IMG/VR virus record: IMGVR_UViG_2703718808_000018
Coordinates: 1-12,452 of that record
Source of the DNA: a virus
Lineage: Duplodnaviria > Heunggongvirae > Uroviricota > Caudoviricetes
DNA length: 12,452 nt
Reading direction: 5' to 3' (one strand)
Shown piece after piece: positions 7,259 through 12,452 of this stretch. The notes beneath the pieces are model-generated. The model was not told the origin of the DNA. It saw nothing but the letters and a program-made list of their open reading frames with translations, and did not search any database. The number at the start of each line of letters is the position of its first letter. Within the stretch, counting starts at the first letter, position 1. The translations under genes and the position numbers were made by a program.

Positions 7259-7667
7259 ACACATCCGTATGGCGATGAATGCCTGGGCATATCCTGATGG
7301 TGAGAAAGTTCCCGCAGCTGAAATAGCCCGGACTTATTTCGAGCTGGGGATGACGTTCCCGGAACTGTACGACGACAGCCATCCGGAAGCCCTGGCTCGT
7401 AATACCCAGAAAATTTTCCGCTGGGTGGAGAAGGACACGTCTGATGCTGTTGAAAAAATTCAGGCGCTGTTACCGGCGATCGAAAAGGCGATGCCGCCTT
7501 TGCTGGTGGCCCGTATGCGCAGTCACAGTTCTGAATATTACCGGGAGATCGTCGAACGACGGGATCGGCTGGTGAAAGATGTGGATGATTTTGTCGCTGT
7601 AGCGATCGCCTGGGGCACCCTGACTAACAGTGGTGGTCAGCCTGGTAATGCTGTTGTTGTGCATTGA
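7242..7667 (+). CDS. YdaT-like protein (Rac prophage family)
   Basis: 141-aa ORF starting MKIKHEHI..., which matches the N-terminus of Rac YdaT as I remember it. It overlaps the end of the cro-like gene by 17 bp. Confidence 0.75.
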   Translation: MKIKHEHIRMAMNAWAYPDGEKVPAAEIARTYFELGMTFPELYDDSHPEALARNTQKIFRWVEKDTSDAVEKIQALLPAIEKAMPPLLVARMRSHSSEYYREIVERRDRLVKDVDDFVAVAIAWGTLTNSGGQPGNAVVVH

Positions 7668-7735
7668 CCAACAATATTTATACCGGATTTCTTCCGGAAG
7701 TTCGTGGGTAAAGTTCGGTATCAGAAGAGGTGAGT

Positions 7736-8767
7736 ATGGCTAATGCCTGGCTCAGATTGTGGCATGACATGCCAAATGACCCCAAGTGGCGAACGATTGC
7801 CAGGGTATCAGGACAGCCAATCGCAACAGTGATGGCAGTGTATATCCACCTTCTGGTGAGCGCGTCACGAAATGTCACGACATGTCACGGCGTGTCACTA
7901 CGTGGTCACATTGATGTCACGACGGAAGATTTAGCAAGTGCGCTTGATGTGACGGAAGACGTAATTGATTCAATTTTGCATGCAATGCAGGGGCGGGTTC
8001 TGGATGGTGACCTTATTTCCGGATGGGAAAAACGTCAGGTGCTGAAAGAGGACAATGGTAACGTTTCGCAAACGGCAAAATCCCCGGCAGAGCGTAAGAG
8101 AGCGCAGCGGGAGCGGGAAAAGCTGCGGAAACATAATGCTGATTGTCACGATGAGTCACGACGTGTCACGCATCTGTCACGACAAGTCACGACAGATAAA
8201 GATACAGATACAGAATTAAACCCCACACATAACGCGCGCGAGAGTATTCCGACCAGTGAGTCGAATGGTGCGCCGTTGCAGACAGCCGAACCTGAATACC
8301 TGGACGGCCTGAGCGAACCGATCGGGAAATTTTCGATGACTACTGTCTGGCAGCCGTCGCCGGATTTTCGACAACGGGCAGCAGTGTGGGGTATGGCTCT
8401 GCCTGAGCCGGAGTTTACACCTGCTGAGCTTGCCGCATTCCGGGATTACTGGATGGCGGAGGGGAAGGTTTTCACGCAGGTTCAGTGGGAGCAGAAATTT
8501 GCCCGTCACGTGCAGCACGTCAGGGCACAGGTAAAACCAGTCAGCAAGGGGGTAAGCCATGCAGCATCAGGTGGCACGGCATCACGGGCAGTTCAGGAAA
8601 TCCGGGCAGCACGCGAACAGTGGGAACGTGACAACGGATTTATCAGCAACGGAAACGGCCTGGAAGCTGTGGGAGCTTATGGGGGAGGTGTATTCGAACC
8701 GCTGGACTCAGAAGAACGGGGCCGCACCTTCGAAGCTCTGGATTGCCCAGATTGGTGCGATGACTGA
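7736..8767 (+). CDS. Replication initiation protein (lambda O-like role; YdaU/DUF1376-type N-terminus, DnaT-like C-terminal region)
   Basis: ATG at 7736 with AAGAGG upstream (the ORF track starts at GTG 7730). The N-terminus AWLRLWHDMPNDPKWRTIARVSG is typical of DUF1376 prophage replication proteins. The gene contains two clusters of phased direct repeats (candidate iterons) and is followed by a P-like gene. Confidence 0.8.
   Translation: MANAWLRLWHDMPNDPKWRTIARVSGQPIATVMAVYIHLLVSASRNVTTCHGVSLRGHIDVTTEDLASALDVTEDVIDSILHAMQGRVLDGDLISGWEKRQVLKEDNGNVSQTAKSPAERKRAQREREKLRKHNADCHDESRRVTHLSRQVTTDKDTDTELNPTHNARESIPTSESNGAPLQTAEPEYLDGLSEPIGKFSMTTVWQPSPDFRQRAAVWGMALPEPEFTPAELAAFRDYWMAEGKVFTQVQWEQKFARHVQHVRAQVKPVSKGVSHAASGGTASRAVQEIRAAREQWERDNGFISNGNGLEAVGAYGGGVFEPLDSEERGRTFEALDCPDWCDD
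7863..7921 (+). repeat. Iteron-like cluster 1: six direct copies of GTCAC(G) at 10-11 bp phasing
   Basis: GTCAC starts at 7864, 7874, 7884, 7894, 7905 and 7916, all in the same orientation and inside the initiator ORF. Confidence 0.6.
8144..8191 (+). repeat. Iteron-like cluster 2: five direct copies of GTCACG at 10-11 bp phasing, followed by an A+T-richer stretch
   Basis: GTCAC starts at 8145, 8155, 8165, 8176 and 8186, followed by GATAAAGATACAGATACAGAATTAAA. This is about 280 bp downstream of cluster 1 within the same ORF. Confidence 0.6.
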
Positions 8768-9221
8768 ACAGCAAATCCGTCTGGTCTGCCGTCAGTGCAT
8801 GGACCGCTGCCGGGCGGGTGAAACGTGGCCCCCGGACCTGGCTGAGTTTGTTGCGCTGATTTCGGAGAGTGGGGCAAATCCATTTGGTCTTACGGTGGAT
8901 GCAGTGATGGAAGAGTACCGGCGCTGGCGCAATGAATCCTGGCGATACGACGGGAGTGATAAATACCCGTGGCCACAGCCTGTGCTGTACCACATCTGCC
9001 TCGAAATGCGTACCAGAGGGATTGAGCGCCAGATGACGCAGGGTGAGTTAAAACGACTTGCGGAACGGCAACTGACGAAATGGGCAAAGCATGTTGGTAA
9101 CGGGATGAGTGTTCCGCCAGTGCGACGACAACTGGAAGGGGCGAAACACCCGCAAGGGCCAACGCCAATTGAACGGCTGAAACAGGAATACGAACGCCGG
9201 AAGGCAGCTGGTTTTATTTGA
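8760..9221 (+). CDS. Replication protein P-like (DnaB helicase loader)
   Basis: The C-terminal two thirds align with lambda P as I recall it (PPDLAEFVAL / YPWPQPVLYHI / ELKRLAERQL versus lambda PSPGQFVAWC / YPWKSNAHYWL / ELRRKAADEL). Stop at 9221 is firm; start is uncertain. ATG 8760 overlaps the initiator stop (ATGACTGA); the same frame is open back to ATG 8679 and ATG 8559, which would give a lambda P-like length but a ~200-bp overlap. Confidence 0.7.
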   Translation: MTEQQIRLVCRQCMDRCRAGETWPPDLAEFVALISESGANPFGLTVDAVMEEYRRWRNESWRYDGSDKYPWPQPVLYHICLEMRTRGIERQMTQGELKRLAERQLTKWAKHVGNGMSVPPVRRQLEGAKHPQGPTPIERLKQEYERRKAAGFI

Positions 9222-9254
9222 ATCTGAGAAACGATTTTGTCGGAGGAAATTTTA

Positions 9255-9971
9255 ATGGAAACTGTATTTGACGCACTGAAAGCACTGAAAAGAGCCTCTT
9301 CACAGGTAGTGGCGGCCCGCCTTGGAATCAGCCGTGAAGATGCGGTCAACGAACTGTGGAAACTGAAGCGCCGCGGTGAAGCGGATAACAAGGGTTCGAT
9401 GTGGTGGCTGATTCAGGCTGGTGAAAGTGAACCGGTGTCACCGGTACCGAAAGTGACAGCGCAAATGCTGATTAAGGCGATTGAACAACATGGCCCACAA
9501 ACGGCAGATGAGCTGGCACTGATGTTCGGGATTACCTCCCGCCGGGCGAATTCATCGCTGGCCATGGCAATCAGCAAAGGGCGTCTGATTCGCGTGAATC
9601 AGGGCGGTAAATTTCGTTACTGCATACCGGGCGCTGATTTACCGGCAGAGCCGGAAGCTGCATCCGTAGCGGAAACAGATGGTAAAGCCTTTCCTCAGCC
9701 AGCAGGTGTTGCGTTACCAGTCCGGGAAACGACGACACAGGAAGAAATGAAAACAGAAATCGTGGAAGACATTGTGAAGTTACAGCCATCGGTCACCGAA
9801 ACGAAAGCAGATGACCTGATTCTACCATCGCTGCATGTGGCTAACCGCGAGCTGCGCCGGGCAAAAGGTCAGGTTCAGAAGTGGGAGCGTGTCTGCGCCG
9901 CGCTGCGGGAACTGAACAAACACAGGGATATTCTCCGGGATATTACCGCCACCAGAGAGCTGCTGCGGTGA
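9255..9971 (+). CDS. Winged-helix DNA-binding protein with two tandem wHTH-like modules and a C-terminal coiled coil (hypothetical)
   Basis: ATG at 9255 with GGAGG 8 nt upstream (the ORF track starts at TTG 9237). Residues ~1-55 and ~75-135 look like two repeats of a helix-turn-helix plus wing, and the C-terminus ([33 protein letters not shown]) is predicted helical. Confidence 0.75.
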
Positions 9972-10285
9972 GTGGCTGGAAGAAGTGGCGCTGGGCGGAA
10001 ATTATGATACTCCGGCAGTGTGCGGGAACGATGACAGTCGAAAGCATCGGCAGTCTGATTGGCCGTAGTGGGGCTGCCGTCAGGACGAAAGCGCGGGAAC
10101 TGGGTATCTGCATGATGTTACGGGGTGATTATCACCAGTCAGCCAAATGTTCACAGCGTGATATTGAGCTGGCGCGGCAACTGCATCAGCGTGGCGTACC
10201 CCGACGGGAAATTGCCGAAAAGTTTGGGATGAAGTTGGGCGCAGTGAATAACTACGTTTATTTCGACAGGAGGGTTCAGGCGTGA
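9968..10285 (+). CDS. Small putative DNA-binding protein (HTH-like segments), hypothetical
   Basis: Proposed GTG start at 9968 overlaps the preceding stop (GTGA); alternative ATG at 10004. The ORF track's start at 9881 lies inside the previous gene. C-terminal [19 protein letters not shown] is HTH-like. Stop at 10285 is firm. Confidence 0.55.
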
Positions 10286-10587
10286 GGGTGAGAATTTATA
10301 TCGCCGGTCCGATGACGGGATATGAAAATTTCAACCGTGAGGCGTTTCACAAGGCGGAAGAAGCACTGAAACAGGAAGGGCATACCGTATTAAATCCCGC
10401 AGTACTTCCGGACGGGCTGACTCAGCCACATTACATGGATATTTGCATGGCAATGATTCGTTGTGTGGATGCGGTTTATATGCTGAAAGGCTGGCAGCGG
10501 TCGGCAGGCGCTAAGGCAGAGCTGGCACTGGCGGAGAAACTGGGGCATGCAGTTATTTTCCAGGAGGCAACCAGTGAGCGAAATTAA
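10282..10587 (+). CDS. DUF4406-like (nucleoside 2-deoxyribosyltransferase-like fold) protein
   Basis: GTG start overlapping the preceding stop (GTGA), with AGGAGGG 7 nt upstream. The N-terminal IYIAGPMTG motif and overall size fit the DUF4406 small Rossmann-like proteins common in prophage nin regions. Confidence 0.75.
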   Translation: MRVRIYIAGPMTGYENFNREAFHKAEEALKQEGHTVLNPAVLPDGLTQPHYMDICMAMIRCVDAVYMLKGWQRSAGAKAELALAEKLGHAVIFQEATSERN

Positions 10588-10734
10588 TTACCAGGAACTA
10601 CGGCAGGTGAAAGAGAAAGCATAATCCAGAACTGAATAATTAAAATCAGCACTGTAAATAAAATTTAATCCTTAACCGGAGGGATTCCTGCACCCTCAGA
10701 ACATCAGGAGACCGCCCGGCAGGGCGGTAGTGAA

Positions 10735-10917
10735 ATGCGAAAGTTCAAAATAATTATTGAAACGGGAATCGCCGGTGGAGATTTCGAGGATGAATTCGAA
10801 GTGAATGATGATGCGACGCCTGATGAAATTCATAACGAAGCAAAAGAAATTTTCTTTAACTACTGCAATTACTCATATCACGAAATAAAAGACGAAGAGG
10901 AAGAACAAAATGGCTGA
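10735..10917 (+). CDS. Hypothetical very acidic small protein (60 aa, about 18 D/E versus 5 K/R)
   Basis: ORF with ATG at 10735. An AGGAG (10706-10710) is separated from the ATG by a 7-bp GC-rich hairpin (10711-10728). The ORF lies inside a segment bounded by 23-bp direct repeats. Confidence 0.5.
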   Translation: MRKFKIIIETGIAGGDFEDEFEVNDDATPDEIHNEAKEIFFNYCNYSYHEIKDEEEEQNG

Positions 10918-11086
10918 TTTTGGTTCAACTAAATACAACGTCAGTTTTGAAGAATGGCATGAACTGTTAATGGACTATGCAGAGTTACGTGGTGGCAGTG
11001 CTGCTGATGCTGAAGCATGGCGTGATGATTATGAAGCAGGAAAAACTCCGGTCGAAGCATATTGTGATGAGTGGGGCGATGAATGA
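10910..11086 (+). CDS. Hypothetical very acidic small protein (58 aa; MADFGSTKYNVSFEEWHELLMDYAELRGGSAADAEAWRDDYEAGKTPVEAYCDEWGDE), below the ORF-track cutoff
   Basis: Hand-translated. ATG at 10910 overlaps the stop of the previous acidic ORF (ATGGCTGA); GAAGAGG lies upstream; stop TGA at 11084-11086. Confidence 0.45.
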   Translation: MADFGSTKYNVSFEEWHELLMDYAELRGGSAADAEAWRDDYEAGKTPVEAYCDEWGDE

Positions 11087-11517
11087 GCGAGATTAATTAT
11101 CAGGAAGGGCATGAAACGGCTGGTCAGCCAACTGAAAAAAGCGAAGCCGGACTGCAAATTACCGGATAAGGCGATGGACTACCTGAAGCGAAACGGACTG
11201 ATAAACGAGGAGAATATTTTACGATGACCTGGCCTGAAGCGTTCATAACGGTAGGAATTGCAATGGCGGTGGCGCTGGTGGTGTATTCGATTTGCCGCTG
11301 GGGATAAAAACGGTTTGCGGGGAAAGAAGAGTTAAGTAGAATTGCTGCGGGTGCTTGAGGCTGTCTGCCTCGGGCATGCCGACGTAAGGCAGACAGAGAA
11401 AAGCCCCAGTTAACATTATGCGTCTTGCAGGACGCTTAACATTAATCTGAGGCCATATCTATGACTTGCACACTTAGATTAGCCTCTTATGCGCCGAAAG
11501 GCAAGGAGCAGCAGGCT

Positions 11518-11673
11518 ATGAAGCAGCAAAAGGCGATGCTAATCGCCCTGATCGTCATCTGTATTACCGTCGTTGTAACGGTAGTGGTAACGAGGAAAGA
11601 CCTCTGCGAGGTACGAATCCGAACCGGCCAGACGGAGGTCGCTGTCTTCACAGCTTACGAATCTGAGAAGTAA
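11518..11673 (+). CDS. hokD: Hok/Gef-family type I membrane toxin (HokD/RelF-like)
   Basis: 51-aa product MKQQKAMLIALIVICITVVVTVVVTRKDLCEVRIRTGQTEVAVFTAYESEK has the Hok/Gef signature: one transmembrane helix, then ...TRK.LCE.R.R.G..EVA.F.AYES.K. ATG at 11518 has AAGGAG upstream; the ORF track's longer form from 11461 is an in-frame upstream extension. Confidence 0.85.
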   Translation: MKQQKAMLIALIVICITVVVTVVVTRKDLCEVRIRTGQTEVAVFTAYESEK

Positions 11674-11741
11674 GAGACCCGGCGAGGGAGAAATCCCTCG
11701 CCACCTCTGATGTGTCAGGCATCCTCAACGCACCCGCACTT

Positions 11742-11768
11742 AACCCGCTTCTGCGGGTTTTGTTTTTT
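11742..11768 (+). terminator. Rho-independent terminator downstream of the hok-like gene
   Basis: AACCCGC-TTCT-GCGGGTT (7-bp stem) followed by TTGTTTTTT. A perfect 9-bp GC-rich hairpin with a GAAA loop (GGCGAGGGA-GAAA-TCCCTCGCC, 11681-11702) precedes it, just after the hok stop. Confidence 0.65.
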
Positions 11769-11839
11769 CCTGGCATTCTGGTTTACAATTCGCACGCCGG
11801 CCTGAACAACTGGCACCTGCTGTGTCACCGGAGAACCCG

Positions 11840-12112
11840 ATGGCGCAACGTATAAAATCCCACAATTCTGAAGCCGTCCCGGCCATTAAGCGGGGGCGGC
11901 ATTCGCACGTATTTAAAACCGACTGGTACCAGCATCCCCCATGCACTGAAGAACAGGCCGAATGGCTGATTCAGTGTTACCGCAGGCGCGGATACGAGGT
12001 TAAGAAAGCCATCAGCCTCGATTATCGTCACTGGATAATCTCTGTCAGGCTCCCTTATTCCGAACATCCACCGCGTCCGTCCCGCACATTCCAGCAACGT
12101 ATCTGGAGGTAA
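11840..12112 (+). CDS. Hypothetical protein (90 aa)
   Basis: ATG at 11840 with GGAG 7 nt upstream (the ORF track starts at GTG 11822); stop TAA at 12110-12112. Basic protein with no recognised domain. Confidence 0.55.
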   Translation: MAQRIKSHNSEAVPAIKRGRHSHVFKTDWYQHPPCTEEQAEWLIQCYRRRGYEVKKAISLDYRHWIISVRLPYSEHPPRPSRTFQQRIWR

Positions 12113-12113
12113 C

Positions 12114-12452
12114 GTGCGGGTATTACTTCGACCTGTTCTGGTGCCGGAACTTGGCCTGGTGGTCCTTAAGCCCGGACGCGAATCACTGCCTGTTTTTCAT
12201 TGCGGCAGGGTGCTGGTGGAGCCGGAACCGAAAAACATGCGCGGTCTGCCGTCCGGAGTCGTTCCTGCCGTTCGCCAGCCGCTGGCAGAGGATAAAACAT
12301 TACTGCCATTTTTCAGCGATGAGCGGGTTATTCGTGCAGCAGGTGGTGCAGGTGCACTGTCTGACTGGTTATTACGTCACGTGAAATCCTGCCAGTGGCC
12401 ACACGGCGATTATCATCACAGCGAAACAGTCATTCACCGTTATGGTACCGGC
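12114..12452 (+). CDS. Hypothetical protein, 3'-partial (runs off the window end)
   Basis: Frame open from GTG 12114 (GGAGG just upstream) to the window end, 113 codons with no stop in my hand translation (MRVLLRPVLVPELGLVVLKPG...CQWPHGDYHHSETVIHRYGTG). Not in the ORF track because it is incomplete. Confidence 0.4.
   Translation, partial: MRVLLRPVLVPELGLVVLKPGRESLPVFHCGRVLVEPEPKNMRGLPSGVVPAVRQPLAEDKTLLPFFSDERVIRAAGGAGALSDWLLRHVKSCQWPHGDYHHSETVIHRYGTG

Follow-up and report, generated by a model that had tools for sequence, protein, structure and literature searches.

A candidate replication origin of two helix-phased GTCAC(G) arrays inside the initiator gene of an Stx2c prophage

The window analyzed here, a 12,452-bp stretch of DNA (IMG/VR record IMGVR_UViG_2703718808_000018, positions 1 to 12,452), belongs to an Stx2c prophage, and its replication initiator gene contains two arrays of the short word GTCAC(G), the second of which is followed by an A+T-rich tract. 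Judging from homologous genes, the arrays and the tract are under selection as DNA, and they are almost certainly functional DNA elements. We propose that together they probably constitute a replication origin that is bound by the initiator and embedded in the initiator's own gene. An iteron origin at this place had been put forward in a preliminary description of the window, and the proposal is supported in silico, at that same level of likelihood, by the conservation of synonymous positions, the switch of the word between protein subfamilies, and the conservation of the A+T tract as DNA.

The arrays, the A+T-rich tract and their conservation

Eleven copies of the word lie within the open reading frame 7736–8767, all in one orientation, six in array 1 and five in array 2 (Table 1). 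The intervals between successive copies are 10, 10, 10, 11, and 11 bp in array 1 and 10, 10, 11, and 10 bp in array 2. Tandem Repeats Finder reported period-10 arrays at both sites, with an additional period-21 row at array 2. The full GTCACG is present in 9 of the 11 copies, the exceptions being GTCACT at 7894 and GTCACA at 7905, and the flanking bases vary. All three frames are used to read the word, which gives S-R, V-T, or G/C-H. An inverted core copy past array 1 is also part of the element, as argued by its synonymous-level conservation in homologues (see below), and the other inverted copy, at 8007–8011, is unconserved and looks like chance. Directly past array 2, the 30-mer at 8191–8220 (GACAGATAAAGATACAGATACAGAATTAAA) has the lowest G+C of the gene (0.27 versus a gene mean of 0.54) and begins 5 bp after the start of the last array copy. 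The sequence scan thus bore out the preliminary description with regard to the number, clustering, orientation, spacing, and location of the repeats and to the A+T-richer stretch past the second cluster. Its separation of about 280 bp between the clusters is correct for the array starts (281 bp), whereas the last array 1 copy and the first array 2 copy are 229 bp apart.

Two calculations rule out chance as the source of the arrays. The largest same-strand count of a 5-mer per 60 bp is 6 in the window, whereas 300 shuffles that preserved dinucleotides gave 3.15 on average and never more than 4. When the protein was held fixed and the codons were resampled, the expected numbers of copies were 0.84 and 0.77, the highest total was 7, and none of 20,000 samples reached 11.

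The N-terminal module of the initiator (N-module) defines a family with 880 database matches, and a scan of one genome per species gave 43 loci in gamma-, beta-, and alpha-proteobacteria. At nearly all loci with at least 58% identity, GTCAC is found on the plus strand at gene nucleotides 129, 139, 149, and 160, with 3–5 copies at approximately 387–430; a few of these loci lack one GTCAC copy or have a variant arrangement. This GTCAC class includes Escherichia, Serratia, Rahnella, Morganella, Pseudomonas, and Stenotrophomonas as well as Gilvimarinus, Bordetella, Chromobacterium, Aquitalea, and Pseudothauera, the last with a locus G+C of 69%. Across 125 intervals in 21 loci, the spacing is 10–11 bp with three exceptions.

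Codon usage was compared in 22 nonredundant gamma- and beta-proteobacterial genes, at those residues that 85% or more of the genes share; synonymous divergence is saturated in this set. The mean share of the commonest codon was 0.92 at 11 motif sites and 0.42 at 35 other sites (Mann–Whitney p = 4e-6). In array 1, Ala43 is GCG in 20 of 22 genes, Ser44 is TCA in 21 of 22, Val47 is GTC and Thr48 is ACG in all 22, Gly57 is GGT (22/22), His58 is CAC (21/21), Val61 is GTC (22/22), and Thr62 is ACG (21/22). In array 2, His138 is CAC (21/21), Ser141 is TCA (20/20), and Val151 is GTC (20/20). Codons outside the motif are scrambled; Val32 is written GTG in seven genes and GTC, GTT, and GTA in five each, and four codons are used for Ser25. 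Val72, which carries the inverted copy at 7949–7953, is GTG in 18 of 19 genes, and the inverted copy at 8007 is not conserved. TCA, GTC, and GGT are retained even in genomes of 60–69% G+C. The possibility, raised in the preliminary description, that homologues keep the peptide without the nucleotide repeats did not materialize: the nucleotide word is retained at synonymous positions from Escherichia to Pseudomonas, Bordetella, Stenotrophomonas, and Pseudothauera.

The A+T-rich tract is conserved in a similar manner. The lowest-G+C 30-mer of the whole gene lies 3–27 bp past array 2 in 25 of 26 GTCAC-class loci and in 10 of 12 loci of the AACGC class described below. The tract has the form (GATAAA/GATACA/AGAGAA)n and a G+C of 0.17–0.37, even in genes of 60–68% G+C. 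The codons GAT AAA for aspartate–lysine thus run counter to the codon bias of the genomes, a second constraint at the DNA level.

Loci of 57% identity or less have no GTCAC and carry a different word, (C)GAACGC, on the same strand and at 10-bp spacing, at gene nucleotides ~131, 141, and 151 and at ~352–405. They belong to Janthinobacterium, Methylibium, Variovorax, Acidovorax, Collimonas, Sphingobium, Novosphingobium, and Chelatococcus. A third word, GCAACG(C), occurs in Ralstonia phage Firinga (38% identity) at 130, 140, 151, 161, and 182 and again at 401, 411, 421, and 431. All word classes share the 10–11 bp spacing and the use of a single strand. Between protein subfamilies, one word is exchanged for another and the arrays keep their places. 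Because beta-proteobacterial hosts are found in both the GTCACG and the GAACGC classes, the word tracks the phage protein, not the host. Most loci have 227 or 229 bp between the arrays, but the full range across genera is 209–319 bp, which does not support a fixed helical phase between the arrays.

In E. coli relatives with 83–90% identity, array 1 is four copies long and array 2 five; the GTCACG cores are invariant, and the spacers differ. The six-copy form of array 1 is also present in E. albertii (L005), Morganella (L022), and E. coli O157:H7 strain FRIK2533. The tract after array 2 varies in length by 6-bp steps, from about 3 to more than 6 hexamers among the relatives, and that of FRIK2533 (L053) is 12 bp longer than that of the window.

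Similarity to relatives that share only the N-module ends at ~8214, and similarity to Rac-type ydaU/P modules begins at ~8194–8217. Because this mosaic junction lies directly past the A+T tract, the N-module, both arrays, and the tract behave as one recombination cassette that is joined to varied C-terminal parts; on this comparison, the arrays and the tract are inherited as one cassette with the N-module. When the neighbors were compared by tblastn with 22 GTCAC-class loci (±2.5 kb), the N-module was found in 22 of 22, and the other components were found in few: the repressor in 2, the Cro/YdaS-like protein in 4, the YdaT-like protein in 2, the C-terminal half of the initiator in 5, the P-like protein in 6, and DUF1627 in 2. 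The C-terminal domains of the relatives vary; some are DnaT-like, one is PF09524, and others match nothing known.

Some individual records of the family are of separate interest. Two metagenome-assembled genomes labeled Collinsella sp. (L006 and L044) carry the module at 85–100% protein identity and look like mis-binned enterobacterial DNA in actinobacterial bins. In a Pseudomonas phage (L052) and related records (H61–H65), two "hypothetical protein" features are annotated under the N-module match. The L052 initiator gene is an ordinary 900-bp open reading frame that carries 4 + 4 GTCACG copies and shares its first 11 bp with the preceding gene.

Table 1. Features of the initiator region in window coordinates
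Feature	Position	Strand	Description
Replication initiator gene, 343 residues	7736..8767	+	PHROGs "replication initiation protein" (phrog_1408, phrog_3729); RefSeq "DnaT-like ssDNA-binding domain-containing protein"
N-module coding region, residues ~1–100	7736..8035	+	Predicted winged helix; accompanies the arrays without exception, unlike any other protein part
Array 1, six direct GTCAC(G) copies	7864..7921	+	Starts 7864, 7874, 7884, 7894, 7905, 7916; encodes loop, residues 43–62
Extra 21-bp segment (7 codons, two repeat units)	7880..7900	+	Absent in most homologues (alignment A1); exact placement within the array ambiguous
Inverted core copy (GTGAC on plus strand)	7949..7953	-	33 bp past array 1; equivalent position occupied in most GTCAC-class loci
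Array 2, five direct GTCACG copies	8145..8191	+	Starts 8145, 8155, 8165, 8176, 8186; encodes end of basic helix and start of disordered linker, residues 137–152
A+T-rich, A-skewed hexamer run (ACAGAT/AAAGAT)n, candidate DNA-unwinding element	8191..8222	+	Encodes (DK/DT)n; Tandem Repeats Finder period 6 at 8192–8214
Mosaic junction	8194..8217		Match boundaries at query 595–618 (window positions 7600–9300 and 7600–8800); alignment A1 diverges past column ~475
DnaT-like ssDNA-binding domain, residues 199–265	8330..8530	+	Pfam PF17948, 62.6 bits (cut-off 25); partial NCBIfam DnaT; PDB DnaT chains by profile
Lambda-P-like helicase-loader gene	8760..9221	+	Overlaps initiator stop codon; Pfam PF06992, E 1.3e-15; phrog_109 "P-like helicase loader"; RefSeq "replication protein P"

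The initiator protein and recognition of the word

The initiator consists of an N-terminal winged-helix module (predicted), a basic helix, a disordered linker, a DnaT-like domain, and a C-terminal tail. Residues 1–160 gave no match to any Pfam family, either in the window protein or in 66 relatives, and they match the PHROGs replication-initiator families. The model TIGR01714 ("phage replisome organizer N-terminal region") aligned residues 5–131 with its positions 1–118 of 119, but at 17.4 bits (E 0.0038) versus a cut-off of 49.8; membership in the replisome organizers is therefore not established. In the same set of proteins, neither the Pfam O family nor RepA_N was matched, and PF09524 was absent from the window protein and present in 1 of the 66 relatives. 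The label "O-like" given to the initiator in the preliminary description had to be dropped, and the N-module represents a different, uncurated, predicted winged-helix family with no studied member.

A search of the sequence against solved structures matched only the DnaT part of the protein. An AlphaFold2 model was built from 66 homologues (mean predicted local distance difference test score [pLDDT] 70.5). The model has a winged-helix domain with helices at residues 4–14, 16–25, 29–45, 63–70, and 74–84 and a hairpin at ~85–95, followed by a long basic helix (residues 117–141) and a disordered tail. A Foldseek search of the N-module against the PDB returned winged-helix matches only, all nonsignificant. 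The N-module is predicted to be a winged helix, closest to the N-terminal domains of DnaD and pSK41 RepA. In the model, array 1 encodes the loop between helices 29–45 and 63–70 (pLDDT 63–69); the extra 21-bp segment maps to this loop, with residues 49–52 below 50. Both arrays therefore lie in a low-confidence loop or linker of the model, where the protein can tolerate an imposed sequence. The repeats had been described as forcing two repetitive peptides into the linker of the initiator. This applies to the second (residues 137–152), whereas the first (residues 43–62) is, according to the model, a loop within the predicted DNA-binding domain.

The N-module is the only constant companion of the invariant word and is therefore the candidate binder; it probably binds the GTCACG cores. 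Positions conserved within the GTCACG and AACGC classes but different between them are N46A, T48E, and H138N, which are encoded by the arrays, and I77V, a deletion of 108–116, R122K, and Q124W, which are the only candidates for specificity determinants found outside the array-encoded segments. The loop encoded by array 1 reads SRNVT..RGH..VT in the GTCACG class and SNATERGRT in the AACGC class. It is conceivable, although we regard it as quite improbable, that the array-encoded peptides themselves are the part of the initiator that reads the arrays. If the array 1 loop contacts the core, a change of the DNA word would simultaneously change its reader. Such an origin and initiator would be a self-referential pair with a one-step route to new replicon specificities. 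In a milder version, the DNA that encodes the binding domain may be wrapped in one looped origin complex formed by both arrays.

Proposed mechanism and rival explanations

Here, we outline how the proposed origin could operate. The early rightward operon (cro/YdaS-like, YdaT-like, initiator, and P-like genes) would be expressed after derepression. The N-terminal winged-helix module would bind the 6-bp cores, and an oligomeric complex would form on array 2. The one-turn period and the single orientation of the copies suggest that the molecules bind head-to-tail along one helical face. Array 1 and the inverted copy, 229 bp upstream, may be drawn in by looping or may serve as an auxiliary or control array. 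The complex, together with negative supercoiling and transcription through the gene, would melt the adjoining (GATAAA/GATACA)n tract. The DnaT-like domain would then hold the single strands, and the P-like protein would deliver the host DnaB. Within this scheme, binding by the N-module, melting of the tract, the part played by array 1, and the steps of helicase loading are inferred.

Several marks of an iteron origin are present. The repeats are direct copies of one word, in one orientation and in phase with the helix, and an A+T-rich candidate for an unwinding element adjoins them. The repeat covaries with the initiator, as GTCACG, GAACGC, and GCAACG track protein subfamilies at the same gene positions. 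A feature of lambda O-type systems, a partner gene of the lambda P family, lies directly downstream of the initiator gene in the window; a P-like gene is found in only 6 of the 22 relatives. No enrichment of DnaA boxes was detected (23 matches versus 25 expected), and none of the matches is tied to the arrays. A search for promoters and terminators in 6800–8900 gave nothing exceeding the shuffle expectation.

The alternative that survives best, although it is unlikely, is that the arrays are binding sites at which the initiator or another phage protein serves regulation, with the true origin elsewhere. The arrays could form an autoregulatory roadblock in the operon, control copy number through titration or handcuffing, or serve as partition anchors. 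Array 1 has no adjoining A+T-rich tract and lies inside a domain-coding region, and the distance between the arrays is not phase-locked; moreover, plasmid iteron arrays often serve control as well as initiation. On the other hand, the cassette formed by the N-module, arrays, A+T tract, and junction parallels the origin-specificity modules of lambda and the RepA_N family (PMC7466680, PMC5703833). A second, distant GTCAC array, comparable to oriR of SPP1, was sought in the remaining ~30 kb of the prophage, and none was found. Furthermore, the most A+T-rich tract of the gene lies directly past array 2 even in genomes of 60–69% G+C, an arrangement characteristic of origins that have an unwinding element.

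Another explanation is that the repeats are sites for a conserved host factor, such as a winged-helix regulator of the PhoB/OmpR type. A pho box consists of direct repeats of the TGTCA type every 11 bp, and TGTCAC at a period of 10–11 bp resembles half of such a box, with T preceding the core in approximately half of the units. However, it is GTCACG that is conserved as the core, without the T before it, and the spacers are rich in G+C. The words GAACGC and GCAACG are unlike a pho box. In addition, beta-proteobacteria occur in both classes, Bordetella, Chromobacterium, and Pseudothauera with GTCACG versus Janthinobacterium, Variovorax, and Acidovorax with the other word. We consider a host factor very improbable and rejected it.

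The idea that the repeats exist for the protein, as a needed repetitive peptide (VT/SR/GH), with the periodicity of the DNA as a by-product or as a contingency tract prone to slippage, was also rejected and has next to no credibility; Ser44, Val47, Thr48, Arg56, Gly57, His58, Val61, Thr62, His138, Ser141, Arg142, and Val151 are invariant or nearly so in the GTCACG class (alignments A2 and A3) and the copy number changes in frame-keeping 21-bp steps, but the 10–11 bp period puts the word in three frames and therefore yields no single peptide repeat, the synonymous positions are fixed only inside the word, codon resampling with a fixed protein gives ~1.6 copies and never 11, and the encoded segments are a low-confidence loop and linker in the model.

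Several observations weigh against an initiator-bound origin at the arrays. The arrays are not separated by a constant number of helical turns across genera, so the phase lends no support to looping. The A+T tract is short in the window (~30 bp, G+C 0.27). The putative recognition helix and wing are nearly identical between the GTCACG and AACGC classes, and besides an indel in the basic region and a few substitutions, the class-specific residues lie mostly in the array-encoded segments. No arrays are seen in L036, L037, L040, L042, L046, and a Microcystis phage (L050). Only 24 sequenced phages carry the module, and none of them is a model phage. Finally, four GTCAC copies at an exact 10-bp spacing are present in noncoding DNA at L048:2386–2420 (NZ_CP024289.1 ~1,788,385–1,788,419; ttGTCACggtgtGTCACtggttGTCACtctccGTCACg). 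This array lies near the end of a separate satellite-like element on the same chromosome, which has an integrase, a RepA-family helicase, Ash, an Icd-like protein, and a protease/capsid fusion. An identical 47 bp is found beside TerL, TerS, and HNH genes in a similar element of strain WP8-S18-ESBL-07. The satellite array may serve the terminase or the replication of the satellite, or it may act as a decoy for the prophage initiator. The occurrence of a similar array near terminase genes in an unrelated satellite indicates that phased short repeats need not mean an origin.

The array-less members (L036, L037, L040, L042 [one beta-proteobacterial metagenome-assembled genome], L046, and L050) also have no A+T-rich tract after the N-module, and L036 and L037 instead have a linker rich in proline, valine, and alanine. 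The origin of these members may be located elsewhere, or the elements may have decayed. Pantoea sp. BAV 3049 (L032, gene nucleotides 1–1302) has the N-module without both arrays. Past residue ~105, its protein has a segment resembling a GIY-YIG nuclease motif (YYVYFVVLRSNYDCYVGISSNP), and CTACG/CGTAG repeats are clustered at gene nucleotides 330–372 and 643–695.

Comparison with known systems and the prophage setting

Origins located inside initiator genes are known from lambda and Stx phages (PMC7466680), SPP1 oriL (PMC5737612), and RepA_N plasmids (PMC5703833). The lambda origin lies in the middle of gene O, with iterons followed by an A+T-rich tract, and the N-terminal part of O is origin specific, whereas its C-terminal part works with P (PMC7466680). 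In the Stx lambdoid phages 933W and P27, which have six-iteron origins, two extra iterons lengthen O by 13 residues (PMC7466680). The candidate origin shares with these phages its location in the initiator gene, the order of repeats and A+T tract, the P-like gene that follows, and the mosaic breakpoint just past the origin. The copy number also lengthens the protein in both cases, by 13 residues in Stx O and by 7 residues here from two extra units. Unlike in lambda, the protein is not an O homologue and its C-terminal part has a DnaT-like domain, and a 6-bp core is repeated with a period of 10–11 bp in two arrays 229 bp apart, one of which is in the region coding for the predicted DNA-binding domain. 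Lambda iterons are ~19 bp with internal dyad symmetry, and classical phage and plasmid iterons are usually 17–22 bp.

In SPP1 oriL, AB boxes and an unwinding element lie within gene 38, and the boxes are bound by the non-AAA+ initiator G38P (PMC5737612). The window gene likewise has repeated boxes inside the gene of its own initiator beside an A+T-rich candidate unwinding element, NCBI calls relatives of the protein "phage replisome organizer," and one relative (P0072) has the G38P-type PF09524. In contrast, the window protein is without PF09524 and the hosts are Proteobacteria; SPP1 has a distant second region, oriR, whereas no second array is present elsewhere in the prophage. In RepA_N plasmids, the Rep boxes are central in rep and encode a dispensable linker; the N-terminal domain of the initiators is a DnaD-like winged helix, and the C-terminal domain varies (PMC5703833, PMC7145576). 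The place of array 2 and the A+T tract in the window gene corresponds to that of lambda ori in O, of SPP1 oriL in gene 38, and of the Rep boxes in rep of RepA_N plasmids such as pSK41. The origins of staphylococcal pathogenicity islands (SaPIs), reportedly described by Ubeda et al. in 2007, are said to be short iterons in two sets with an A+T-rich region, recognized by the Rep of the island. The SaPI origin differs in lying beside rep, not inside it, and in having two sets that flank the A+T region, whereas here the tract is found past array 2 only; SaPI Rep is a helicase unrelated to the initiator described here.

The candidate origin is distinct from these known systems in its combination of a 6-bp core, a one-turn period, two arrays, reading in three frames, and at least two exchangeable words in a fixed architecture. 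Papers on the replication typing of Stx phages call the replication of the nonlambdoid types unknown and do not mention an origin or iterons for such modules (PMC8044961, PMC8951638). No account of this origin or word was found in the literature searched, which covered older and subscription phage papers thinly, and a prior mention is possible. That an origin lies inside an initiator gene would not surprise a specialist; what merits experiment is the design, with two arrays, three frames, and a switching word, and its relevance to Stx2c phages. The analysis provides a precise and testable candidate origin and a candidate initiator-binding word for an unstudied, widespread replication module. 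The locus is also a clean natural case in which a coding sequence carries a DNA signal across all three reading frames. The interchangeable words in a fixed architecture make it a good system for studying the evolution of origin specificity and the tolerance of a gene for an embedded origin.

The window is identical in sequence to a region of E. coli O178:H19 strain 2012C-4431, where it forms the early region of a ~45-kb prophage that carries stx2c and is integrated between potB and potC. The gene order is integrase, excisionase, exonuclease, dicB, RelE/ParE–RelB pair, repressor, Cro/YdaS-like, YdaT-like, initiator, and lambda-P-like. A 97.9% identical version is present in O157:H7 strains such as FRIK2533 and TW14588. 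Window positions 7600–8800 are matched at a coverage of at least 80% in 658 of 5,426 complete E. coli genomes. The module is carried by Stx2c prophages of O157:H7 and other Shiga-toxin-producing E. coli strains, in which prophage replication drives the dosage of the toxin gene, and also by temperate phages of Pseudomonas, Bordetella, Serratia, Ralstonia, and others. In the immunity region, genes for a RelE/ParE-family toxin (5970–6257) and a RelB antitoxin (6257–6448), both on the minus strand, adjoin the repressor gene (6476–6877). Tandem Repeats Finder reported further repeats at 2277–2325, a 21-bp unit in 2.3 copies within the exonuclease gene, and at 9273–9290, a 9-bp unit in two copies at the start of the DUF1627 gene.

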